Shown in pieces: positions 2,284 through 61,893 of a stretch of 64,000 nucleotides of DNA. Source of the stretch: a phage; the sequence record PV730302.1; one strand, 5' to 3'. The position numbers and the translations under genes were made by a program. Within the stretch, counting starts at the first letter, position 1; each line of letters begins with the position of its first letter. Under the pieces are notes generated by a model that was not told where the DNA came from, ran no database searches, and saw only the letters and a program-made list of their open reading frames with translations.

Positions 2284-4003
2284 TCAGAATAGTTTTCGTC
2301 GCAATAAACTGATTGAAGAAATGGCTCCTCAGCGTCGTGCTGAGGCGCTAGCCCAAACTCAGAACGACGAATTAGGAAATATATCAGATGTTTTATCCGA
2401 TTCCCAGGCGGCGTCTGAATTGCTCTCTGAAGTGGTTGAGACAAAGTCTAATCAGATTATTAGTTCTGTAGACCGAGTAGATAAAAGCGTCCAAGATGTT
2501 GTTGCCGGGACAGAATTAACGGCTGAAGCTATATCAGAACAAACTCAACAATCTAAAGCTCTTTCGGATGCACTAAACGAAAAGATTAATAAGCTTTCTA
2601 ATATGTTAGAGGCTAAATTTTCTGGTATTTCTATTCCACCGGAAGGGAGCTCATTAAAGGTTATTGAAGACTCTATTCCGGAAGAACCTAAGGCCGAAAC
2701 TCCTAAAGTTCCTGCTGTTGTTGAAGATATTCTTCCACCTGAAGATAATAAACCTGACGCTGAATTTATGCCTGAGCCTCCTAAAAATTCAGATGAAGGT
2801 AAAGAAGGTGATAAGACTTCTCTTTCCGAGAAAATAGAAGCCCTTACTAAAATAACTGAAAAGGGATTTAAAGCTTCTATAGGCGTCGCTGATAGAATTT
2901 CAGGCATGCTTTTTAAGTATACCATTACCGCTGCCGCTGAAGCTGCTAAACTCGCCGCAGGTTTAGTCCTTTTAATATTTGGTATAGATGCCATTCGTGT
3001 GTACTTCCAATATTTCATGGACCAATTTGAGGCAGGATGGAAAGAATTTAACGATAAGTTTAAAGAGTGGGGACCATTACTTGAAGGGCTAATGACATGG
3101 GCCAAGAATGCTGAAGCCATGTTTAGTGAAGGGAACTGGTTAGGTCTGGCTGAAGCCATTATTCGTGGTATGGTTAATCTTACTAAAAATATGGCCCAGC
3201 TTTTAATGCTCGGTATTTCTAAGTTGATTTCTGCCATTTTAAGCAAAATACCTGGTATGGGTGAGTTAGCTGAAAACGTGGAGGCTTCCGCTTTAATGTC
3301 GTATCAGCAAAATACAGGAGCCACTTTGGATGATGAAGACCAAACTAAAGTAGCCAAGTACCACGATAGACGTTCTGCCGAGGCTTTAGAAACAGCCGAG
3401 AAAATGAATAAGAAGTATAAGGATAAACCCGAGCTTATAAACCAAGCAGAGAAATACGGTAATCTTACTAAAGAACAAGCTGACCAATTACGTGCAGGTG
3501 GAATTGACACAAGCTTCCGTGACCTCCCTGAAGAAGAACGATTAGAGTATTTCAAGAAGCGGGATAAAGCCCAAGCCGATATTATTCGTTTGACTCAAAC
3601 TGCTGATAATATAATGAAGCCTGATTCTAAAGATATCGAAAATGCTAAAGCATTTAAAGCTGATATCGAGAAACAATTGGCCGACCCTATTATGGCTAAA
3701 GGCGGAGCACCGAAGGACCTTAATATCCAGCAATTACTTGATAAGATGAATAAATCTTTAGAGAAATTTAATGAAGCTGAAAAGCCTAAACCTGCTTCTG
3801 TAGCGGAATCTCCTGAAAATACCCAGGTTAAAAAGGTGGATGAGCAAATGAGAGCAAAGGAAAATGCTAAATATAGTCAGCAGGCTCCAACTCAAATAAA
3901 TCAGCAAACGAATATCAAGAAAACGAGTAAGACTAGTTATAATTTACCTCCACAGTCCTCTACTCCTGCTCCTGGTATGCGTCAAGCTACTAAAGTTAAT
4001 TAG
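2267..4003 (+). CDS. 29: baseplate hub / tail length determining protein gp29
   Basis: 578 aa (T4 gp29 590 aa); extended, low-complexity, coiled-coil-like sequence typical of tape-measure-like proteins; synteny. Confidence 0.65.
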   Translation: MKNESNQNSFRRNKLIEEMAPQRRAEALAQTQNDELGNISDVLSDSQAASELLSEVVETKSNQIISSVDRVDKSVQDVVAGTELTAEAISEQTQQSKALSDALNEKINKLSNMLEAKFSGISIPPEGSSLKVIEDSIPEEPKAETPKVPAVVEDILPPEDNKPDAEFMPEPPKNSDEGKEGDKTSLSEKIEALTKITEKGFKASIGVADRISGMLFKYTITAAAEAAKLAAGLVLLIFGIDAIRVYFQYFMDQFEAGWKEFNDKFKEWGPLLEGLMTWAKNAEAMFSEGNWLGLAEAIIRGMVNLTKNMAQLLMLGISKLISAILSKIPGMGELAENVEASALMSYQQNTGATLDDEDQTKVAKYHDRRSAEALETAEKMNKKYKDKPELINQAEKYGNLTKEQADQLRAGGIDTSFRDLPEEERLEYFKKRDKAQADIIRLTQTADNIMKPDSKDIENAKAFKADIEKQLADPIMAKGGAPKDLNIQQLLDKMNKSLEKFNEAEKPKPASVAESPENTQVKKVDEQMRAKENAKYSQQAPTQINQQTNIKKTSKTSYNLPPQSSTPAPGMRQATKVN

Positions 4004-4011
4004 GATTAATA

Positions 4012-5100
4012 ATGAAAGCAAAAGAAATTGACATTAATGTAGCCTCCTTGTTTAAAGGAGGCTCAAAGACCTCCGCCGGCCAGTCTAAAGCTAAACCGGC
4101 CCAAACTACAGTAATGGCCCAATACCCGGCAGAAAGGGTCTCCGGTAATGATACCTCCACAGATATGGTGTTAAGCGATTTATATAAAAACGGCTTACTT
4201 TTTACAGCGTATAATTTTAGCTCTCGTGTATCACCTGATTTGCGTAATGACCGATCAAGTCAAATGTCTAAAAAGTTTTCAAAAGCTGCTAGTAAGCTTA
4301 CCGGCAATACCGGAGGATTCAGCGCGGTTAAAAACTTGTTCAGTAATAACTCTAAGGGAGTTAAATTTGACAACCAAGCTTTGGCGAATATTTTACTCCC
4401 ACGTTCTAAATCTGACGTAGATTCGGTGTCGCATAAATTTAATGATGTCGGTGAATCATTAATTACTAAAGGCGGAGGTACTGCTACAGGTATTTTAAGT
4501 AACGTTGCAAGTACTGCAGTATTTGGTGCGTTGGAATCTGTGACTAATGGCGTAATGGCCGATTCAGGCGAGCAGATATACACCACAGCCCGTAGTATGT
4601 ATGCAGGGCCTGATAACCGTACTAAGGTATTCACTTGGGAAATGACTCCACGAAACGCCCAAGACCTTATCCAGATTATTAAAATATACGAAATCTTTAA
4701 TTACTATTCTTATGGTGAAACCGGCAACTCAGCCTTCGCTGGTGAATTAAAAGAGAAGATTGATACCTGGTATCGTTCTACGTTTAAAAAAGAAGCTATT
4801 GACAAGTTTGACGGTAAGCTATTAGGGGAAAGTATTACAAGCTTCCTTTCTAATGTTATTGTGGTAAGTAATCCGACCATTTGGTATATCCGAAACTTTG
4901 GTGATAGCAGTTCATATGATGGTCGTGAAGATATTTTTGGTCCATGCCAAATCCAGAGTATCCGTTTTGATAAAACTCCGGACGGCCATTTTAACGGATT
5001 GGCTATTGCTCCTAACTTACCATCTACGTTTAGTTTAGAAGTTACTTTCCGTGAAATCATTACTTTGAACCGTGGCTCACTTTATACGGAAGGATTCTAA
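4012..5100 (+). CDS. 48: baseplate tail-tube junction protein gp48
   Basis: 362 aa (T4 gp48 364 aa); synteny after gene 29. Confidence 0.65.
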   Translation: MKAKEIDINVASLFKGGSKTSAGQSKAKPAQTTVMAQYPAERVSGNDTSTDMVLSDLYKNGLLFTAYNFSSRVSPDLRNDRSSQMSKKFSKAASKLTGNTGGFSAVKNLFSNNSKGVKFDNQALANILLPRSKSDVDSVSHKFNDVGESLITKGGGTATGILSNVASTAVFGALESVTNGVMADSGEQIYTTARSMYAGPDNRTKVFTWEMTPRNAQDLIQIIKIYEIFNYYSYGETGNSAFAGELKEKIDTWYRSTFKKEAIDKFDGKLLGESITSFLSNVIVVSNPTIWYIRNFGDSSSYDGREDIFGPCQIQSIRFDKTPDGHFNGLAIAPNLPSTFSLEVTFREIITLNRGSLYTEGF

Positions 5101-6029
5101 TGTATACTTTACAAGAATTTCAGAACCAGGCAATTAATATTGACCTACAGAGGAATAACCTGTTTAGTGTAGTATTTGCAACGGTTCCTTCTTCTAAATC
5201 TCAAGCGCTCCTCGACCAGTTCGGTGGAGCTTTATTTAACAATATCCCATTGAATAGCGATTTGTTTGGTATTACACAAGGAGAGTTGACCCAAGGTGTT
5301 ACGACATTAGTGACAGCGGGCACTCAGAAGTTGATTCGTAAGTCAGGCATAAGTAAATATTTGATTGGAGCTATGTCATCCAGGGTTGTGCAGAGCTTAC
5401 TAGGAGAGTTTGAAGTAGGTACATATCTGATGGATTTTTTCAATATGGCCTATCCTACGGCAGGTCTTTTAGTCCACGCCGTTAAAATCCCGGATAATAC
5501 TTTGAACTATGAAATGGATTTGAACCACAACTCACCTAACATCAAAATTACCGGAAGAGAATATTCTCCATTAGTATTAAGCTTCCGTATGGATTCTGAA
5601 GCTGCTAACTACCGTGCTTTTAATGATTGGGTCAATAGTGTTCAAGACCCTATTACACAATTAAGAGCATTACCGGAGGATGTTGAAGCTGACATTCAAG
5701 TCAACCTTCATTCCCGTAATGGATTACCACATACGGTAGTAATGCTTAATGGTTGCGTTCCAATGAGCGTATCTTCCCCGGAATTATCTTACGACGGTGA
5801 TAACCAAATTGCTTCATTTGATGTTACATTTGCTTATAGAAGTGTACAGACTGGTGCAGTTGGCAAACAAGCTGCTTATGAATGGTTAGAAGATAAAGTC
5901 CTTAAAGGCGTGGCGGGTATAAGTGAGAGCAATTCCCTGAGTTCTTCAGTAGCTAAATTAAGCCGACTTTCAGGAGCTTCTAGTGGATTAACAGGATTGG
6001 TTAATAGTGGAATATCGAGGTTGTTATAA
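5100..6029 (+). CDS. 54: baseplate tail-tube initiator gp54
   Basis: 309 aa (T4 gp54 320 aa); start overlaps gp48 stop; last late gene before the strand switch. Confidence 0.65.
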   Translation: MYTLQEFQNQAINIDLQRNNLFSVVFATVPSSKSQALLDQFGGALFNNIPLNSDLFGITQGELTQGVTTLVTAGTQKLIRKSGISKYLIGAMSSRVVQSLLGEFEVGTYLMDFFNMAYPTAGLLVHAVKIPDNTLNYEMDLNHNSPNIKITGREYSPLVLSFRMDSEAANYRAFNDWVNSVQDPITQLRALPEDVEADIQVNLHSRNGLPHTVVMLNGCVPMSVSSPELSYDGDNQIASFDVTFAYRSVQTGAVGKQAAYEWLEDKVLKGVAGISESNSLSSSVAKLSRLSGASSGLTGLVNSGISRLL

Positions 6030-6034
6030 CAAAA

Positions 6035-6056
6035 AAGGAGAGCATATGCTCTCCTT
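6035..6056. terminator. perfect 22-bp palindrome between convergent genes (putative bidirectional terminator)
   Basis: aaggagagcat/atgctctcctt located 5 nt after the gene 54 stop and 8 nt before the stop of the minus-strand ORF 6064..6354. Confidence 0.5.
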
Positions 6057-6063
6057 TAGGGGT

Positions 6064-6354
6064 TTATTTACGGAACGAAATGAAACCTGCTGTGGTCATT
6101 AGTGGTTGCTTTTTAACAAACACCGTAACCGAAATAGGAGCTTCGGATTCGAGTTGTCCTGTCACTACACCGTTAAAAATGTTTTCGGTTTGTTCTGGAT
6201 AAGAAAAATTCTCAACAGGTCGGATATCAAACTGTTTGTCTTCACCGAAAACTCGACGTAATTCATTACCCACTGCACTGTCAAACTCTTCAGAAGCAGG
6301 GATAACGTTTTCAACTACCAGTTCTTGACCATTAAAACGGAATGTAGATTTCAT
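6064..6354 (-). CDS. hypothetical protein (position of T4 alt.-1/-2/-3 small ORFs)
   Basis: 96-aa ORF downstream of the alt-like genes on the minus strand. Confidence 0.4.
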   Translation of the reverse strand: MKSTFRFNGQELVVENVIPASEEFDSAVGNELRRVFGEDKQFDIRPVENFSYPEQTENIFNGVVTGQLESEAPISVTVFVKKQPLMTTAGFISFRK

Positions 6355-34530: not shown

Positions 34531-35478
34531 TTAATAAAAATCAGCTACTGTAGCAGTTAGTTTAGACAAACCAGATTTAACGAAATAAGGATAGACTTTA
34601 GATTTCGAAGGTTTGTTATACGTATTATATCTTTCAGTAATTAAAGCAACAATATCATCTGGAATATAGTCCATATCAATTAAGATTTGGTTTTCACAGA
34701 AACGTTCATATTGTTCTTCAGTAAGAAGTGTTTTAATTATATCACGGTCGTAATAATTCAGAGCAATCGCTTCAAGTTCCCTGGCACGAGTGCTAGGAGT
34801 ACGTTCGCCTTCAACCATTGTCAACCAGTAGTCACCACGAACTTTAATACTCGCAACGTTATCCTTGCGGTCGCCTTTAACAACCTTAGTTACACAATCA
34901 AGCAATGCATCGCCGGATTTTGTTTTGACGAATTTTTTCTGCATTGGAGACCATTGTTTTACCCCAGGGAATTTATGAAGTTGGGTAAAGTCACCATCAG
35001 AAGAACCAATCATAACAGGGTGACCTAAAGCCGTAAGGATGCGAGTCAATACAGCAATATGGTCATCAGCTTCGATTGTATCGATATTCATAACAATATA
35101 AGGCATGTTTTGTTCCAGTTCATCAACAATAATATGCATTGCTGTGAATAAACCTTCCCAATCAAATGGTGATTCGTCACGTGCCTTAGCACGGTTTTTC
35201 TTATAATAGGAAGAATAACGACGACGCCAATAACCTGATTTGGAGTTATCAACACAAATAACCAGTTGGTTGTAACCTTGTTTTTTAAAGTCTTTAATAT
35301 TTTTCTTAATTGAATTCAACACGAGGTGTCGAAGCATTGCTGTAGTTACTTTAGGAAATCCAGCATTTTCGCCAAATTCTTGGAATGCTGCCGCCATAAT
35401 GATTTGGCTGAAATCTAAGAGTAAAAATCCATCTTTTTGTTGGTCTTCTTCAGGAAGTAAAAAATCTAAATCGTTCAT
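34531..35478 (-). CDS. rnh: RNase H (5'-3' exonuclease, FEN-like)
   Basis: 315 aa; LLDFSQI, SGYWRR..YYKKNR, EADDHIAVL, SSDGDFTQLHK..VKQWSPM.KK, KGD.KDNVAS.KVR match T4 Rnh as recalled. Confidence 0.9.
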   Translation of the reverse strand: MNDLDFLLPEEDQQKDGFLLLDFSQIIMAAAFQEFGENAGFPKVTTAMLRHLVLNSIKKNIKDFKKQGYNQLVICVDNSKSGYWRRRYSSYYKKNRAKARDESPFDWEGLFTAMHIIVDELEQNMPYIVMNIDTIEADDHIAVLTRILTALGHPVMIGSSDGDFTQLHKFPGVKQWSPMQKKFVKTKSGDALLDCVTKVVKGDRKDNVASIKVRGDYWLTMVEGERTPSTRARELEAIALNYYDRDIIKTLLTEEQYERFCENQILIDMDYIPDDIVALITERYNTYNKPSKSKVYPYFVKSGLSKLTATVADFY

Positions 35479-50930: not shown

Positions 50931-51071
50931 TTACCATACTAGTGAATGAATAGCCATAATGACATCGGAAATAAAAAGCACAACTTGGATAAGTCCGAAC
51001 ATTACTCCATAATACAGCGCTACTAATAAAGCAGCAAGGGCTACCGAGCAGCCCAAGATTTTATTAATCAT
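50931..51071 (-). CDS. small hydrophobic membrane protein, 46 aa
   Basis: Track ORF starts with TTG at 51119; ATG 51069-51071 (MINKILGCSVALAALLVALYYGVMFGLIQVVLFISDV...) overlaps the upstream stop. Confidence 0.35.
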   Translation of the reverse strand: MINKILGCSVALAALLVALYYGVMFGLIQVVLFISDVIMAIHSLVW

Positions 51072-55105: not shown

Positions 55106-57316
55106 TTAAGCCGCTTCCACGGCTTTCATGAATTTAACGATTTGAGCTACAGAAGCCTCGGTAATGGATGTTCCACGACGATACATGTAGTCCGAAACTA
55201 AATGGTAATCGGATTCAAACTGTACAGTCATTTTATCATTGTTGCTTGAAGCATTATTGGTTAACGTATTAAACGTTGTGTTACAGATTTTCTTGATAAC
55301 GGAAAGCTTGTCATCAGTGATATAGCCATGGAAATTCATATAACGGAATATATCATAGAAATTACTCAGACGAGTATATGCTTCAGTTACCGGCTTGTCA
55401 CTGAAATACTTGGTCATGAAATTAAGCTGAGGGAACTTAGCAATGATTTCAAGGTAATACCGAGCTCTAGTATTGCTACCAAGGTAGTCGTCAATATCTA
55501 CCGCATCCAATGCTTCAGCATAAGCTTCTAATGTAGCTTCCATCAGGCATTCACACTGGCCTAACTTTTTAATCTTTTTAGCAATCTGAGGGCGAATGAT
55601 ATGGAATTCGGTAGCACCAATCAAATTAGCCATACGGCACATGGTAGTGGTATTGATGTCAAAGATACCATAAGCTTCATCCATTCCCATGATATCAGAA
55701 CGGCTGCCAAACAGAACATAACCGGTAATTTCTTCTGCTTCAGCTGCGGTCAAATACATGGTCTCTGTTTGCCAACGCCCATCTTTAATGAACCAACGAT
55801 AAGCACTTGGTGTTTTAGGACGAGGTTCTGACGAACGAACCGTAACCGGAATCCATGGCTTAACAATTTTATTCAGTTCAGAGACTTTATAAAAATGAAT
55901 TGTGTCACCTTTAAAAAGTTCTTTAACTTTTTCGAGTTGTTGCATTTGCAGCATTGAATTCGGGTCGACTAAAATAAGGTCGGTCCCGTATTTAGGAATA
56001 TTGTGCTCTTTAACAATTTTCTTAGCCGAAGCACTGTTGTCCATTGCCAAGGCCCAAAGTCCTCGAACTAGCGGCACACGACCCTTTTCATCATCATAAA
56101 CAACATGGATTTCTTTCTTATTAATGCCTAATAAACTACTAAGTCCTGCCACCGAAGAAGTATTACCACTCGGCTTAATTCGTTTCAAACGTGGGTCTGA
56201 AACGATTTCGTAAACAACGCCTAAATTAAGAAGGTCGTTTTGAAGGGTATAACGCTGGTATAATTTCTCATATGTCAATTTTTCTGTAGTAAACAGGCTA
56301 GTTCCACCTTTTTTGGTAAGATAGTCACGAGCACTGTAACCAAGGTTAGAAAGGTCACGATAAACATGGCGCGGATTATCAGATTCAACCCATTCCTTTG
56401 TATCATTTTTAAAGACCACTGCATCCAGTGCTTCAATACGGGTTGCGATATTTTCCATCGTACGTTTATCAAGAGACAACACTTCACGAGACGGAGCAAT
56501 ATCCAGTGAACCCATAGGGAACTTAATATAAACTACATCATGGCGAGTACGCATCCATGTGCCTTTATTATAAGCAGAATCCAATGGATAGACAATACCA
56601 CCGTAAACAGCATAAAGTCCTGAACGTTCGAAGTTGCCATAATTTGTAGTGGTTACAGGATAGTAATCATCAAATTCAGGGAAATAATCAACTTCAACAC
56701 CGTCAACATCGCCAAGACCAATGAAAGGCCTCATGATATAACGAACTTCAGTTTCGAACTTACGGAAGTCTTCTTCGTCCACAGGAACCGTGATTTCGAT
56801 ACCTGTTTTATCACCCGGCTGCATAGGTTCTACGAAAGTAGGTTTAATCTGTGGTCCATCACCGTCCATATATGCTACATAACCACGAACTTCACCATTA
56901 TGCCATGACGTGATATTAAACGTTTCGGTATAACTGAACGGAGATTTTGAACCAAGGCCAAAACCACCGATGAAATCGTTAGAAGCGGTTTTGGACGACG
57001 CGAAATAAGAGTTATACAAACCTGTTTCGTTTTCATCACCACGAATTTGGAAATCACTCATGCCCGGCCCGAAATCACGGCATACAAAACGAGGGTCCAG
57101 TTTACCAGGAACCTGTACTTTCCAACGTTCTTTATTACCATTCAGAATATGGGCATCAATCATGTTGGTAATTAGTTCACGTACTACAGCACGTACCTTA
57201 TTACTATAAAGGTCTGATGACAGAATTTTAAAGACCTTAGGCGATGCCTGGATAGTAAAGCCTGTGGACTTAGCACCATTACCAATGATTTGTTCTTTTT
57301 CGGTTTCAATAATCAT
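55106..57316 (-). CDS. rIIA: rIIA protein
   Basis: 736 aa (T4 rIIA 725 aa); N-terminal GHKL/Bergerat-type ATPase-like region (VRELITNMIDAH...); adjacent to rIIB. Confidence 0.9.
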   Translation of the reverse strand: MIIETEKEQIIGNGAKSTGFTIQASPKVFKILSSDLYSNKVRAVVRELITNMIDAHILNGNKERWKVQVPGKLDPRFVCRDFGPGMSDFQIRGDENETGLYNSYFASSKTASNDFIGGFGLGSKSPFSYTETFNITSWHNGEVRGYVAYMDGDGPQIKPTFVEPMQPGDKTGIEITVPVDEEDFRKFETEVRYIMRPFIGLGDVDGVEVDYFPEFDDYYPVTTTNYGNFERSGLYAVYGGIVYPLDSAYNKGTWMRTRHDVVYIKFPMGSLDIAPSREVLSLDKRTMENIATRIEALDAVVFKNDTKEWVESDNPRHVYRDLSNLGYSARDYLTKKGGTSLFTTEKLTYEKLYQRYTLQNDLLNLGVVYEIVSDPRLKRIKPSGNTSSVAGLSSLLGINKKEIHVVYDDEKGRVPLVRGLWALAMDNSASAKKIVKEHNIPKYGTDLILVDPNSMLQMQQLEKVKELFKGDTIHFYKVSELNKIVKPWIPVTVRSSEPRPKTPSAYRWFIKDGRWQTETMYLTAAEAEEITGYVLFGSRSDIMGMDEAYGIFDINTTTMCRMANLIGATEFHIIRPQIAKKIKKLGQCECLMEATLEAYAEALDAVDIDDYLGSNTRARYYLEIIAKFPQLNFMTKYFSDKPVTEAYTRLSNFYDIFRYMNFHGYITDDKLSVIKKICNTTFNTLTNNASSNNDKMTVQFESDYHLVSDYMYRRGTSITEASVAQIVKFMKAVEAA

Positions 57317-57910: not shown

Positions 57911-58063
57911 TTATTCAATTTTGTAGACTTGTCCTCGAACTTGATAAAATTCGCCTTCCCAGGTTTCTACCATAATGGTCACGTACTCTGCGAACAAAGG
58001 TCTCTTCTCAGCCCAGAGATATCCAAATTCACCGGTGGCTAGCGTTATCCAGTACTTTCTCAT
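57911..58063 (-). CDS. hypothetical small protein
   Basis: Track ORF to 58198 overlaps the topoisomerase 3' end; ATG 58061-58063 (MRKYWITLATGEF...) has a strong SD (AGGAGA); alternative start ATG 58088-58090. Confidence 0.35.
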   Translation of the reverse strand: MRKYWITLATGEFGYLWAEKRPLFAEYVTIMVETWEGEFYQVRGQVYKIE

Positions 58064-58106
58064 AAAGTCTCCTAATTGTATGGCACTCATGTACCATACA
58101 TATTTA

Positions 58107-59924
58107 TTACGACATCCAGGCCTTACGGAGTTGAGGGTCGTTTCCGAGGAGCATTTCGAACTGTTCTTTCCAATCTTCAGGCAATTGAACCACATCAAAT
58201 TTAGGGTCTTGAATCATTCGACGATATTCAGCTTTCTCAAGAGAACCTAGTCCTTTGATATAACGAATAGAATGTTTTGGTAGAGAGTCCTTAGCTTTGG
58301 TATAACTAGGAACATCATAGAACCATTCTTGTTCTTTACCAACCTGGGCAATAATCACCGGAGTTTTACAGAATCGTACTCGACCCTGTTCGAACAATTC
58401 AGGCCATTGACTAAAGAAGGCCAGCAATGATGGGTAAATCGAACCAGTACCATCCACATCAGCATCAGTCATGATAGCGATATTACGATAGTTAGTTTTC
58501 TCTGCAGGTTCGCCAATAACCAGTCCAGTGATTGCACAGATATCAAATAGTTCCTTGTTCTTCATGATATCTGTTGCCGACATTCCCCAGGTATTCATAA
58601 CCTTACCACGTAATGGATAACCACCTTGAAGGTCTTTATTACGGACTTCAATGAAAGGACCCATAGCGGAATCACCTTCGGTTAGGAACAAGGTTGTATC
58701 GGCGTCTTTGCCGTATAGGTTAGCTTTAATATGCTTATGGACCTTGGCTTTAGAAGCTTTCTTAGCGGCTTTAGTTTCGGCGGCTTTTTCAGCTGCTAAT
58801 TTACGTGCTAAAGCCGCTTCAACGATAGGCATAATCAACCCTTCGTCTTTAAGAATATACTGTGAGATTTTCTTTGCATCAATTTGAATATGGTTACGAA
58901 TTTCACCGAATGGTGACGTCAAACGTTCTTTAGTCTGGGAATCAAAACGCATATTACTCATATCGCGAATGAACATCACCATCGTAAGGCATTCTTTAAC
59001 TCGTGCCTTACTTACTTCAATGCCTTTATATTTCTTCTTGATGCCTGGCAAGAGATGTTCGCAGATATCATCAAACACACATTCAACATGATGACCACCA
59101 TTCTTAGTATGAATATTGTTCACATAAGTTAGGTGGCGGAATCCATCCGGAGATGTAGTAAATGCCATTGAGACATTATCGGTTTCTTGAATTACTACAT
59201 CTTTACCAAATTGATTAGCATACTTTTTAAAGTTACCATCTACTTTTTTACCATTAAAAGTAAATTGGATACTAGGATAAATTACAGCTAGAGTTTTAAG
59301 ACGATCTAGAGTAATATCCAGATAAATTTGTGATAGAGAGTTCTCTTCAAAATGATTAAAGTCTGGAGTGAATATAACCGAAGTACCCTTACCTTTAGAT
59401 TTCTTAGTAGACCAACCTTTGTTTTCCATTCCATTGGAACAGTTAACTGTAATTTCATTCTCGCCATCAGAGGTGATGCCTGTGAACAAAACGGAGAAGA
59501 TATTAGTTAAACTACTACCGACACCATTCATGCCGCCTGTCTTACGCTCAGCGTCATCTCCAAAGTTACCACCCGCCTTTGGAATAGTCCATGCTGCTAC
59601 AGGACCTGGAATCTGTTCACCATTTTGGTCGGTGACCATTGCTTGTGGAATACCACGACCATTATCAGAAACTGAAACCTGGTTATTCTTAATTTGAACA
59701 TCAATTTTATTTGCGAATTTAAAATTGGTACGAATAGCTTCATCGACAGAGTTATCAATGATTTCGTCAATTAATTTAACCAGTCCAGGAACATAGTTTA
59801 CCTGTGTAAAATTACCAAACAGGAATCGACCGTGAGCTTCATTAGCACTGGAGCCAATATACATCCCACTACGTTTTTTGATATGTTCAATGTCGGACAG
59901 TACTTTAATTTCATTCTTAATCAT
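58107..59924 (-). CDS. 39: DNA topoisomerase II large subunit (fused gp39/gp60-type, GyrB-like)
   Basis: 605 aa single ORF; N-terminal GHKL ATPase (GLVKLIDEIIDNSVDEA), TOPRIM-like region (LFLTEGDSA...DADVDG); longer than T4 gp39 (516 aa), consistent with inclusion of the gene 60 portion without a bypass element. Confidence 0.85.
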   Translation of the reverse strand: MIKNEIKVLSDIEHIKKRSGMYIGSSANEAHGRFLFGNFTQVNYVPGLVKLIDEIIDNSVDEAIRTNFKFANKIDVQIKNNQVSVSDNGRGIPQAMVTDQNGEQIPGPVAAWTIPKAGGNFGDDAERKTGGMNGVGSSLTNIFSVLFTGITSDGENEITVNCSNGMENKGWSTKKSKGKGTSVIFTPDFNHFEENSLSQIYLDITLDRLKTLAVIYPSIQFTFNGKKVDGNFKKYANQFGKDVVIQETDNVSMAFTTSPDGFRHLTYVNNIHTKNGGHHVECVFDDICEHLLPGIKKKYKGIEVSKARVKECLTMVMFIRDMSNMRFDSQTKERLTSPFGEIRNHIQIDAKKISQYILKDEGLIMPIVEAALARKLAAEKAAETKAAKKASKAKVHKHIKANLYGKDADTTLFLTEGDSAMGPFIEVRNKDLQGGYPLRGKVMNTWGMSATDIMKNKELFDICAITGLVIGEPAEKTNYRNIAIMTDADVDGTGSIYPSLLAFFSQWPELFEQGRVRFCKTPVIIAQVGKEQEWFYDVPSYTKAKDSLPKHSIRYIKGLGSLEKAEYRRMIQDPKFDVVQLPEDWKEQFEMLLGNDPQLRKAWMS

Positions 59925-59976
59925 GTTATTTCCTCATGTAGTAGGAGAATATTATCCCATTTCACTTAAAGCATAA

Positions 59977-59992
59977 AAGGGCCGAAGCCCTT
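59977..59992 (-). other. RNA hairpin AAGGGC-UUCG-GCCCUU overlapping the lipoprotein gene stop
   Basis: Inverted repeat with UUCG tetraloop on the minus transcript, followed by a U-rich stretch; terminator-like, upstream of the gene 39 start. Confidence 0.4.
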
Positions 59993-60251
59993 AATCAAAT
60001 CTAATGGTCGACTTTTTAAAGAATAATCCAGAACAAACAGTTCCTTCAACCCTTTTACCTGTCGGACCCACAGCAATAAAGCCTGTACGTTGGAAATCAT
60101 CTTCAGAACAGCCAAATAGGTTATATCCTGTGATTTGGATTTGTTCGTAGCCATTTGCATCCAATACACGGGTGGCATTATCGGCATCAGTACAACCAAC
60201 CAACGAAACGGCTAGTACAAGAGCTGCAATAGAACGATTAATATATTTCAT
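59991..60251 (-). CDS. putative lipoprotein
   Basis: 86 aa; signal peptide with lipobox LVGC (MKYINRSIAALVLAVSLVGC); four additional Cys in the mature part. Confidence 0.5.
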   Translation of the reverse strand: MKYINRSIAALVLAVSLVGCTDADNATRVLDANGYEQIQITGYNLFGCSEDDFQRTGFIAVGPTGKRVEGTVCSGLFFKKSTIRFD

Positions 60252-60257
60252 AATTTC

Positions 60258-60434
60258 TCACTTAGTCAGAAGGTCGTAAAAACCGCCATTAACATGTTTA
60301 GGAGCCGAGACTAACCGAACAGCCAGCCGATGGCAATCAGGACAAACATCATTATCTCTTTCAGAGATTTTCTTGATTTTTTCATATTCTTTCGCACAGT
60401 CTTCAGATTGGCATTTGTAATCATAAAGTGGCAT
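60258..60434 (-). CDS. zinc-ribbon protein (CxxC...CxxC), 58 aa
   Basis: Track ORF to 60527; ATG 60432-60434 (MPLYDYKCQSEDC...CPDCH...) with strong SD AAGGAG; FmdB-like zinc-ribbon pattern. Confidence 0.45.
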   Translation of the reverse strand: MPLYDYKCQSEDCAKEYEKIKKISERDNDVCPDCHRLAVRLVSAPKHVNGGFYDLLTK

Positions 60435-60645
60435 TATAAGTCTCCTTCCAGAATTCAGTGCCTTCAGCAGTGATTTCACGGAACACTGCATAGATAGGGG
60501 TTTTATCGCCTTGATTTTCGTATACATAAACCGACGATAAACGAGAAAACGTATCAGAATGTTCCTTTTGAACCACGATTAAATCCGGGTTGAACAGAAC
60601 ATCTTCAAATTCTTCACGAGTCGAGTTCATCGTAACTTTAGCCAT
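60421..60645 (-). CDS. hypothetical protein
   Basis: 74-aa ORF. Confidence 0.35.
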   Translation of the reverse strand: MAKVTMNSTREEFEDVLFNPDLIVVQKEHSDTFSRLSSVYVYENQGDKTPIYAVFREITAEGTEFWKETYNATL

Positions 60646-60719
60646 TTTATTTTCCTCTCATTTGTTGATAGGGTAATCTTATCACTACCCTACCATATTG
60701 TATACTGTTTTTTTAAACT

Positions 60720-61271
60720 TTATGCAAAATGAATATCAGCATACTCAACTATAAAGCTCTCAGGAACAACCTTAAAGGTTCCAAGGAACACGATGTTATA
60801 GAGCTTAACGCCTTCTTCAACCCACTGGTCAGTGATGTAACCGGACATACTAGTGGTTTCATAAGTCGGACCGTACTTGCACTTGTATTCAAACGGTTTA
60901 GGTGAAACGAAAAAGACACCTTTACCTAATTTCCATTTGAAATCAACACCAACATGAGATTGGTCGATAGTTTCGACGTCTTGAGCTACTACGCCACGGA
61001 TATCATTGCTTTCACATACATACCCATCGTGGGATTCGACTTCTTCAACTACAGGAGCGATGTATCCAGTAAATTCAGTTGATTCCAGGAATTTAGGATG
61101 TACATAAGCCAATTGAGTTTCAGCATGACCATGTTTAGGAATAATACGCACTTTAACTTCTTTAATTCCACCCACTAAATTAGTACGAAGACCCACAACC
61201 TCAACAAAACGACCCGCGGCTTTTGAGCGAGATTCTTTGGATACACGAACAATTTCACCGATAGTAATCAT
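60720..61271 (-). CDS. hypothetical protein, paralog family Y (member 1)
   Basis: 183 aa; C-terminal YITDQWVEEGVKLYNIVFLGTFKVVPESFIV closely parallels the neighbour's GWVTDQWVEDGVELLNVVHAGDFSVVPRSAVV. Confidence 0.45.
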   Translation of the reverse strand: MITIGEIVRVSKESRSKAAGRFVEVVGLRTNLVGGIKEVKVRIIPKHGHAETQLAYVHPKFLESTEFTGYIAPVVEEVESHDGYVCESNDIRGVVAQDVETIDQSHVGVDFKWKLGKGVFFVSPKPFEYKCKYGPTYETTSMSGYITDQWVEEGVKLYNIVFLGTFKVVPESFIVEYADIHFA

Positions 61272-61313
61272 AATTTTCTCTCTTGGTTAATAAGTTTATT
61301 CTCCATGAGAGCC

Positions 61314-61342
61314 ATTATAACATGGCTCTCGATAAAGTAAAC
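61314..61342 (-). promoter_or_regulatory. early promoter (GTTTAC-N17-TATAAT) with -10 in loop of a perfect 9-bp-stem hairpin
   Basis: gagagccat-tataac-atggctctc (61307..61330); -35 gtaaac 17 nt away; upstream of ORF start 61271. Confidence 0.5.
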
Positions 61343-61344
61343 TA

Positions 61345-61893
61345 CTAATTCAATACATTAACCACTGCACTACGAGGTACTACGCTGAAATCACCCGCAT
61401 GGACAACGTTCAGAAGCTCAACACCGTCTTCAACCCACTGGTCTGTTACCCATCCACAGATAGGATTATCAAAAGGACGACGGATAGACACAGCAGCACA
61501 CAGAAGGTCAGTAGGGTCTTGTTCTTCAACTTCTTGGAACAGGATTAACTCTGCTTCATAAACCAGGTTTTTCTCTACTTTGTTATTATCTAACCGGCGA
61601 CCGTGGATGACGTAAGATTTGGCAAACCAGTCGCTTTTGGTAAATTCTTCAATAATAAATTCGCCTTCGCCAAAAACATCAGTCAGAGTTTTATAACCGG
61701 AAACCAAGGCCCTGGTTTTAATTTCAGGTTCAACCAGTTTGTAGGTTTTGCCGATTTCGATAGTCTTAGTAGTCATAGTGGTTTCCTTAATTTCCATTGG
61801 TTTAATAAGAGTGCCGTACATACTTGCAATGTCAAAATCAATCAGTTTAGCTGCCGGATTCGGGGTGTATTTAGGGTTATAATTAAATTTCAT
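61345..61893 (-). CDS. hypothetical protein, paralog family Y (member 2)
   Basis: 182 aa; shares C-terminal motif with ORF 60720..61271. Confidence 0.45.
   Translation of the reverse strand: MKFNYNPKYTPNPAAKLIDFDIASMYGTLIKPMEIKETTMTTKTIEIGKTYKLVEPEIKTRALVSGYKTLTDVFGEGEFIIEEFTKSDWFAKSYVIHGRRLDNNKVEKNLVYEAELILFQEVEEQDPTDLLCAAVSIRRPFDNPICGWVTDQWVEDGVELLNVVHAGDFSVVPRSAVVNVLN

Follow-up and report, generated by a model that had tools for sequence, protein, structure and literature searches.

T4 genes 39.1 and 39.2 in a Dhakavirus: a predicted envelope lipoprotein and an independent zinc ribbon protein

Llp of phage T5 and Cor of phages phi80 and N15 exemplify small receptor-blocking lipoproteins of the outer membrane, oriented towards the periplasm and produced before lysis. 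Both are tied to the receptor FhuA, and Llp has a functionally important disulfide. In T4, the early and non-essential proteins Sp (spackle) and Imm act at the envelope of the infected cell in superinfection exclusion. Here, we describe gp39.1, a predicted lipoprotein encoded next to the zinc ribbon protein gp39.2 in a 64,000-nucleotide stretch of phage DNA (sequence record PV730302.1) that is referred to throughout as the window. While gp39.1 shares small size, predicted periplasmic orientation and production before lysis with Llp and Cor, Pfam and PHROG scans revealed no sequence or profile relation to them. Its family spans phages of several bacterial phyla instead of being linked to FhuA, and its structural model matches cystatin, PepSY and VirB8-type proteins. 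In being early, non-essential and presumably active at the envelope it likewise recalls Sp and Imm, which are unrelated to it in sequence and are not lipoproteins. The closest counterpart is T4 gp39.1, an orthologue encoded in the same place between 39.2 and gene 39.

An 801-bp query (positions 59900-60700) proved 95-97% identical at the DNA level to the Dhakavirus phages ABTNLsp5, IME08, MX01 and JS98, and we assign the window to a T4-type phage, a Dhakavirus resembling JS98 and IME08. Both small open reading frames (ORFs) were recovered at the coordinates given in Table 1. The genome annotations of IME08 and T4 name them 39.2 and 39.1, the T4 layout is identical, and 39.1 is found directly upstream of gene 39 also in IME08, T4 and Klebsiella phage 311F. 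We classify the two ORFs as the Dhakavirus orthologues of T4 39.2 and 39.1. An earlier reading made from the sequence alone (the sequence-only reading) had described a lipoprotein followed by a zinc ribbon protein, placed the pair downstream of gene 39 and considered neither protein assignable to a known T4 function. These three statements need correction. Because this region is encoded entirely on the minus strand, transcription passes the zinc ribbon gene before the lipoprotein gene. Gene 39 follows after both, which places the pair upstream of it, and both proteins can be assigned to T4 orthologues. The explanation that accounts best for the observations overall, and which we hold with slightly better than even confidence, is that the two are independent, non-essential early accessory genes and that gp39.1 is an envelope lipoprotein.

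The predicted lipoprotein gp39.1 and its T4 orthologue

The two ORFs proposed earlier do exist, as judged from ORF calls, from the ratio of non-synonymous to synonymous substitution rates (dN/dS) and from hidden Markov model matches to PHROG 902 and Zn_ribbon_8, respectively. Relative to re-sequenced T4, dN/dS amounts to 0.08 for 39.1 (at a dS of about 2) and to 0.02 for 39.2, which means that both are under purifying selection and are more than chance ORFs. The gp39.1 sequence begins with MKYINRSIAALVLAVSLVGC, followed by TDADN, and contains the lipobox L17-V18-G19-C20. Its n-region is positively charged (K2, R6), and residues 7-19 (SIAALVLAVSLVG) are hydrophobic and uncharged. The protein passes the strict PROSITE rule PS51257, which demands K or R within the first seven residues, a lipobox of the type [LVI..][ASTVI..][GAS]-C and the cysteine at position 15-35. 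Cys20 is invariant in 46 aligned homologues, as are C48, C73, L30, G42, D52, T56, F58, A60, G70, K79, T82 and R84. Among 221 collected family members, Cys20 is conserved in 97%, and a recognisable lipobox is present in 181; residue +2 is T or S in 157 of these 181 and D in none. The LVGC motif of the sequence-only reading thus marks what is predicted to be a genuine lipoprotein precursor.

The additional cysteines remarked upon in that reading are C48 and C73. Both are present in 211 of the 221 sequences and are jointly lost in 3, while the two single losses can be ascribed to one alignment shift and one truncated sequence. Such co-variation is the pattern expected for a disulfide, and hence for an oxidising periplasmic location, and we infer that C48 and C73 form such a bond. 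Taken as a prediction, the description of gp39.1 as a small, exported, lipid-anchored and disulfide-containing periplasmic domain made early in infection is well supported. A minority of family members deviate from the common architecture: in P0127, P0143, P0147, P0155, P0163, P0164 and P0135, the lipobox is replaced by an uncleaved N-terminal hydrophobic anchor, or its cysteine is exchanged for Ser or Phe. Another member, P0113, carries two tandem copies of the domain, the second of which lacks both disulfide cysteines.

Homology searches placed gp39.1 in a conserved family. It matches phrog_902 (function unknown) over residues 1-85 with E=6.1e-35. Its identity amounts to 80% with the intact T4 protein and to 99-100% with proteins of the JS98 group. 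Relatives in the databases (JS98, IME08, KP185 and others) are labelled 'hypothetical protein' or 'lipoprotein', and a profile search displaying source names returned these two labels only. Comparison of gp39.1 with Pfam, NCBIfam and PADLOC yielded no family, merely noise at the level of the signal peptide, and a Pfam scan of 50 distant family members likewise matched no family.

The T4 reference genome, on which most functional-genomics studies are based, misrepresents both genes. Positions 5560-5740 of NC_000866/AF158101 are only 93.4% identical to re-sequenced T4 (OZ209057, locus 415-900), with about 12 mismatches or gaps and a length of 181 instead of 179 nt. The legacy entries X06220 and M89919 carry the same divergent 181-bp stretch. 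In the reference, 39.1 reads MKYISRSIAALVLAVSLINSTDAD-stop, with a Cys-to-Ser change and a +1 frameshift. As a consequence of these changes in the legacy sequence, reference gp39.1 (NP_049622) is annotated as a protein of 65 amino acids that starts at an internal ATG, about 65 nt downstream of the true start, and has neither the signal peptide nor the lipobox cysteine. Another frameshift shortens reference 39.2 from 58 to 45 amino acids. The divergence applies to the comparison with each of eleven independently re-sequenced T4 genomes (T4T, KJ477684-6, MT984581, OL964735/45, OZ035787, OZ209023/57 and MZ375356), and re-sequenced T4 encodes an intact 86-residue lipoprotein with the lipobox LIGC and a 58-residue ribbon. 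Subedi and Barr had already compared three T4 sublines with AF158101, reported about 172 differences and suspected reference artefacts (PMC8573959).

Early expression, as proposed in the sequence-only reading, is borne out for the T4 orthologues. The RNAs of T4 39.1 and 39.2 are both classed as early; gp39.1 protein was detected and accumulates late, whereas gp39.2 was not detected (PMC9697503, supplementary files 4 and 6). In the genome-wide CRISPRi-ART knock-down with dCas13d, 39.1 and 39.2 were both scored 'Not Fit' (PMC11879866, supplementary file 15). The guides for 39.1 had been placed on the faulty reference start (5565-5615), which renders the negative result for this gene weak. Classical viable T4 del(39-56) deletions also span the 39.1/39.2 region, and we conclude that the two are non-essential early accessory genes of T4-type phages. 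More generally, negative results derived from the reference annotation, be it through knock-down guides or proteomics databases, need careful reading. Among the papers of the library searched, none addresses gp39.1 or gp39.2.

If the truncated, signal-less 39.1 and the shortened 39.2 of NC_000866 were taken at face value, the ORFs could be regarded as decaying or functionless passengers, and a knock-down without fitness effect in T4 would be in keeping with this. We consider this idea extremely unlikely. The frameshifts and the Cys-to-Ser exchange are confined to the legacy entries and the eleven re-sequenced genomes are intact; dN/dS is low for both genes, more than 1000 intact copies exist, and the gp39.1 protein is detected in T4 infection. 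Pseudogene decay was rejected, the apparent decay in T4 being limited to the legacy reference sequence.

Distribution, fold and possible role of gp39.1

Using tblastn, we found 39.1 in 1065 of 50,697 phage records. The carriers are mostly Straboviridae of Escherichia, Klebsiella, Shigella, Enterobacter, Yersinia, Serratia, Citrobacter and Cronobacter; Aeromonas phages carry it as well (16 records). Homologues with 45-53% identity occur in Vibrio phage SRILMA, the Pseudomonas jumbo phage RVTF4, the Xanthomonas jumbo phage XacN1, Sinorhizobium phage phiM7 and a Microcystis phage. Across phages of Enterobacteria, Vibrio, Xanthomonas, Sinorhizobium, Microcystis and Bacteroidota, the mature domain is 45-57% identical. 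Successive homologue collections comprised 72 and then 553 sequences, and an exhaustive profile search at E<1e-3 returned 2231 family clusters at 50% identity; nearly all of the 150 best listed are 80-120 amino acids long. In bacteria, the patterns used retrieved two loci from 185,579 species genomes, and the one examined for its context (Flagellimonas) is phage-like. The surroundings of distant members vary: some reside among small early ORFs, others beside rIIA/rIIB homologues or near ligase and glycosyltransferase genes, and no neighbouring gene was constant among the distant-homologue loci examined.

Two of the distant homologues deserve separate mention. One resides at positions 6001-6249 of a 232,767-bp metagenome contig, in the early region of what appears to be a prophage of the HK97/lambdoid type, with CP76, HTH_36, DUF1064 and YbcO upstream and HNH, terminase and portal genes downstream. 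The family thus extends beyond large virulent myoviruses. This prophage-borne homologue had no match in a search of E. coli genomes. In an unrelated metagenomic phage (1478-5249), a large ORF and an rIIB homologue immediately precede the lipoprotein gene, an arrangement that echoes the location of 39.1 near rIIA in T4-type phages and may be a coincidence.

This distribution bears on the proposal, made in analogy to T5 Llp and phi80/N15 Cor, that gp39.1 masks a receptor and excludes superinfecting phages. The protein would bind and lock the phage's own outer-membrane receptor from the periplasmic side, and infected cells and debris would cease to adsorb phages or let them in. A small lipoprotein of the outer-membrane type with a probable disulfide, expressed early in T4 and non-essential in the laboratory, would suit such a role. 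Yet masking of one specific receptor is unlikely, since family members retain about 50% identity among phages that infect hosts from different phyla and use different receptors. With members in phages of all the groups named above and of Pseudomonas, the family is not restricted to phages using one receptor, and Pfam, PHROG, fold and viral-structure comparisons found no homology to any characterised exclusion lipoprotein. Overall, we regard receptor masking as rather improbable.

The mature part of gp39.1 was modelled as a compact domain in which one helix is followed by four antiparallel strands (pLDDT 84.9). Fold comparison of this model matched VirB8 (6.0), a designed cystatin fold (5.9), the PepSY protein YpmB (5.8), tarocystatin (5.5) and the colicin M immunity protein Cmi (4.6; PDB 2xgl), and the matches also included the N-terminal domains of DsbC and of amine oxidase. 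All of these belong to the class termed cystatin-like in SCOP, and the model assigns mature gp39.1 a cystatin-like fold with one helix on a four-stranded antiparallel sheet. The likeness to Cmi and to the cystatin and PepSY inhibitor domains exists at the level of the fold, with 7-14% sequence identity and no shared motifs identified. A comparison with the BFVD viral structure library returned uncharacterised family members only.

The compact fold is also relevant to a possible function in lysis, either as an outer-membrane spanin subunit or as a factor that sets lysis timing. Apart from being a small lipoprotein of the outer-membrane type, as o-spanins are, gp39.1 has little in common with such proteins: its domain is folded instead of forming a proline-rich extended chain, its RNA is early in T4, and an inner-membrane partner is neither adjacent nor embedded, the neighbours being 39.2, cef and gene 39. 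Moreover, phrog_902 is its sole PHROG match, Pfam offers none, and T4-type phages carry the spanin pair pseT.3/pseT.2 elsewhere. A role in lysis is hardly credible in our view, and the spanin identity was rejected on account of the early RNA, the lack of an adjacent partner and the compact fold.

Returning to gp39.1 as an envelope lipoprotein, the following sequence of events can be proposed. The Sec system would export the precursor, Cys20 would receive the lipid, and signal peptidase II would then remove the signal peptide. In E. coli, the residue after the lipidated cysteine decides whether the Lol system sorts a lipoprotein to the inner or the outer membrane (the +2 rule). Since residue +2 of gp39.1 is Thr and not Asp, Lol would most probably deliver it to the inner leaflet of the outer membrane; both processing and location are predictions from the sequence. 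The 67-residue mature protein would sit against the membrane with almost no linker and fold into a disulfide-stabilised cystatin-like module. This module may bind or inhibit some conserved envelope component of Gram-negative bacteria, the candidate targets being periplasmic proteases, enzymes that remodel peptidoglycan and trans-envelope machines. The effect would be that the envelope of the infected cell is conditioned or protected, possibly so as to resist secondary attack, instead of a single receptor being plugged. We put forward the binding or inhibitor module tentatively, because of the roughly 50% identity across host phyla, the very short tether and the fold resembling cystatins, PepSY domains and immunity proteins. 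General protection against secondary attack is possible.

Several points weigh against this picture. No experiment or characterised homologue stands behind any specific function of gp39.1, and the knock-down in T4 was without fitness effect, though with the misplaced 39.1 guides described above. Outer-membrane sorting was assigned solely by the E. coli +2 rule, and the membrane-anchored variants of the family would sit on the inner membrane instead. A Foldseek comparison of the full-length model with the PDB gave nothing significant. Similarly, the gp39.1 sequence profile found no match among PDB sequences at E<=10, and none in Pfam.

It is conceivable, with a still lower probability, that gp39.1 represents an unrecognised class of periplasmic effector used by phages of several host phyla. 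In this view, a cystatin-like lipoprotein, tightly tethered and locked by its disulfide, would neutralise some enzyme or machine of the envelope that is universally conserved, for instance a periplasmic protease or a peptidoglycan hydrolase. Such a class, of which T4 itself would encode a member, would have been overlooked for decades because the errors in the T4 reference removed the signal peptide. For the window itself the finding is an ordinary one, as both genes are known, annotated and non-essential accessory genes. The gp39.1 family, in turn, is large (about 2200 clusters, more than 1000 phages) and has no Pfam model, structure or characterised member. Strong purifying selection across very different hosts makes it a reasonable target for work on envelope manipulation.

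The zinc ribbon gp39.2 and its relation to 39.1

The 58-residue gp39.2 begins with MPLYDYKCQSEDCAKEYEKIKKISERDNDVCPDCHRLAV and is 96% identical to its counterpart in re-sequenced T4. It scores above the cut-offs of both Pfam PF09723 (Zn_ribbon_8; E=2.3e-11, 43.9 versus 34.4 bits) and TIGR02605 (CxxC_CxxC_SSSS, FmdB family; 45.4 versus 31.3 bits). The sequence-only reading had announced a CxxC...CxxC zinc ribbon. The zinc ribbon, which we place in the FmdB family, and the CxxC of the second knuckle (C31, C34) stand, while the first knuckle (C8, C13) is in fact Cx4C. With other FmdB proteins gp39.2 shares the four cysteines in two knuckles, and it differs from them in the Cx4C spacing and in having no Ser-rich tail. 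A sequence search of the PDB returned noise only. That gp39.2 is a separate, extremely conserved, cytoplasmic four-cysteine zinc ribbon of the FmdB family is a well-supported prediction.

A weak hint comes from the neighbours cef, goF and motB, which act on RNA or transcription, and on it we base the suggestion that gp39.2 probably binds a host or phage macromolecule of gene expression. It speaks against this suggestion that we know of no partners for FmdB-type ribbons and that the 'regulator' label of the family is historical; for phage members, 'transcriptional regulator' is a putative label.

The two genes had been presented as a pair, and this is not borne out by their distribution, as each is found without the other in many phages. 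We encountered 39.2 in 849 phage records, almost all from Escherichia, Shigella, Yersinia and Citrobacter and essentially none from Klebsiella. A two-component system consisting of a cytoplasmic zinc ribbon regulator or partner and an envelope effector could be imagined from the arrangement of the genes, which are adjacent, separated by 6 nt between the 39.2 stop and the 39.1 ATG, and co-transcribed in Tequatrovirus and Dhakavirus. But the Vibrio, Xanthomonas and Sinorhizobium loci have no 39.2 near 39.1, and 39.1 is present in 249 records of Klebsiella phages, in which 39.2 is either essentially missing or carries a frameshift. Conversely, 605 Escherichia phage records contain 39.2 as opposed to 422 with 39.1. 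The predicted compartments differ (cytoplasm for gp39.2, periplasm for gp39.1), and distant 39.1 homologues have no constant neighbour. A two-component system is therefore very doubtful. The relation between 39.1 and 39.2 is one of synteny only: they are two independent genes and not a functional pair. In Klebsiella phage vB_KpnM_311F (1692-1912), the 39.2 frame is split in two (MPMYDYKCEVCGKR, then MRKISHRDYTVNCFNPKCEG) next to an intact 39.1; the split reflects a pseudogene or else a fault in the assembly.

Transcription signals and neighbouring genes

Every gene in the neighbourhood is on the minus strand, and the order in the direction of transcription is dda, dexA.1, dexA, motB.2, a motB.1-like gene, motB, cef, 39.2, 39.1, a hairpin, gene 39 and rIIA. 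The features of the locus are compiled in Table 1.

Table 1 Features of the 39.2-39.1 locus and its surroundings in the window
Feature	Coordinates	Strand	Remarks
motB	60720-61271	-	Upstream of cef
cef	60421-60645	-	Upstream neighbour, translationally coupled to 39.2; Pfam T4_Cef, E=4e-32
Shine-Dalgarno sequence of 39.2, AAGGAG	60442-60447	-	From sequence; 7 nt before the 39.2 ATG
Gene 39.2, zinc ribbon	60258-60434	-	58 aa; FmdB family, cytoplasmic (predicted)
Gene 39.1, lipoprotein precursor	59991-60251	-	86 aa; PHROG 902; stop codon 59991-59993
Signal peptide, codons 1-19	60195-60251	-	Predicted; agrees with PS51257
Lipobox LVGC	60192-60203 (Cys20 60192-60194)	-	Agrees with PS51257; Cys20 conserved
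Mature 67-aa domain	59994-60194	-	pI 4.9; one helix and four antiparallel strands (modelled)
Terminator-like hairpin AAGGGC-UUCG-GCCCUU + UUAU	59977-59992	-	Directly after the 39.1 stop; folded
MotA-box TGCTTTA-N12-TAATAT (-10)	59949-59973	-	25-49 nt upstream of the gene 39 ATG
Gene 39, topoisomerase II large subunit	58107-59924	-	Downstream neighbour; ORF, named from IME08 and T4 annotation

The end of cef extends 14 nt into the start of 39.2. This arrangement can be explained by comparison with IME08 (3537-4100), in which goF lies between the two genes. In the window, goF is precisely deleted from its own ATG to that of 39.2 (junction 60434-60448), and the alignment shows the goF Shine-Dalgarno sequence and ATG fused onto the 39.2 ORF. 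The deletion has given 39.2 the Shine-Dalgarno sequence of goF as well as its overlap with cef. The strong ribosome-binding site that the sequence-only reading had attributed to the 58-residue gene is present and belonged originally to goF. Among Dhakaviruses, goF is kept in IME08 and JS98 and is absent from MX01, ABTNLsp5 and KIT01. A longer ORF of 89 amino acids starting at 60527 and overlapping cef was considered as 39.2 and rejected as unsupported, as the homologues have 58 amino acids.

Position 59977, from which the sequence-only reading had let the pair begin, is non-coding and forms the foot of the terminator-like hairpin. This hairpin is the sole site of its kind within 59800-61500 and closes the cef-39.2-39.1 transcription unit. 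T4 retains a hairpin at the same place with an altered, still paired stem. An Rfam scan of 59000-61500 gave nothing above threshold, only noise. Beyond the hairpin, the MotA-box and -10 element at 59949-59973 fit a middle promoter for gene 39. The motif TGCTTYA-N11-13-TANNNT occurs at 10 sites in the window as compared with 1.7 expected by chance, as would fit T4-type middle promoters distributed over the whole window; the sites lie mostly on the minus strand, further examples being 55230-55253, 51009-51033 and 34624-34648. We propose that cef, 39.2 and 39.1 are co-transcribed from upstream early promoters and that this transcript would end at the hairpin, ahead of the middle promoter of gene 39.

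Three further observations concern the neighbouring genes. Gene 39 is a single, unsplit ORF of 605 amino acids without the gene 60 split, the translational-bypass region and the mobA insertion of T4. Its 3' end is overlapped by a 95-residue ORF (57911-58198) of which only the last 50 residues match phrog_4369, and the real gene within this ORF probably starts at an internal codon. The product of 61345-61893 is called motB.1 in relatives; its C-terminal segment matches the MotB family (PF17613, E=8e-9), and it looks like a MotB paralogue adjoining motB.

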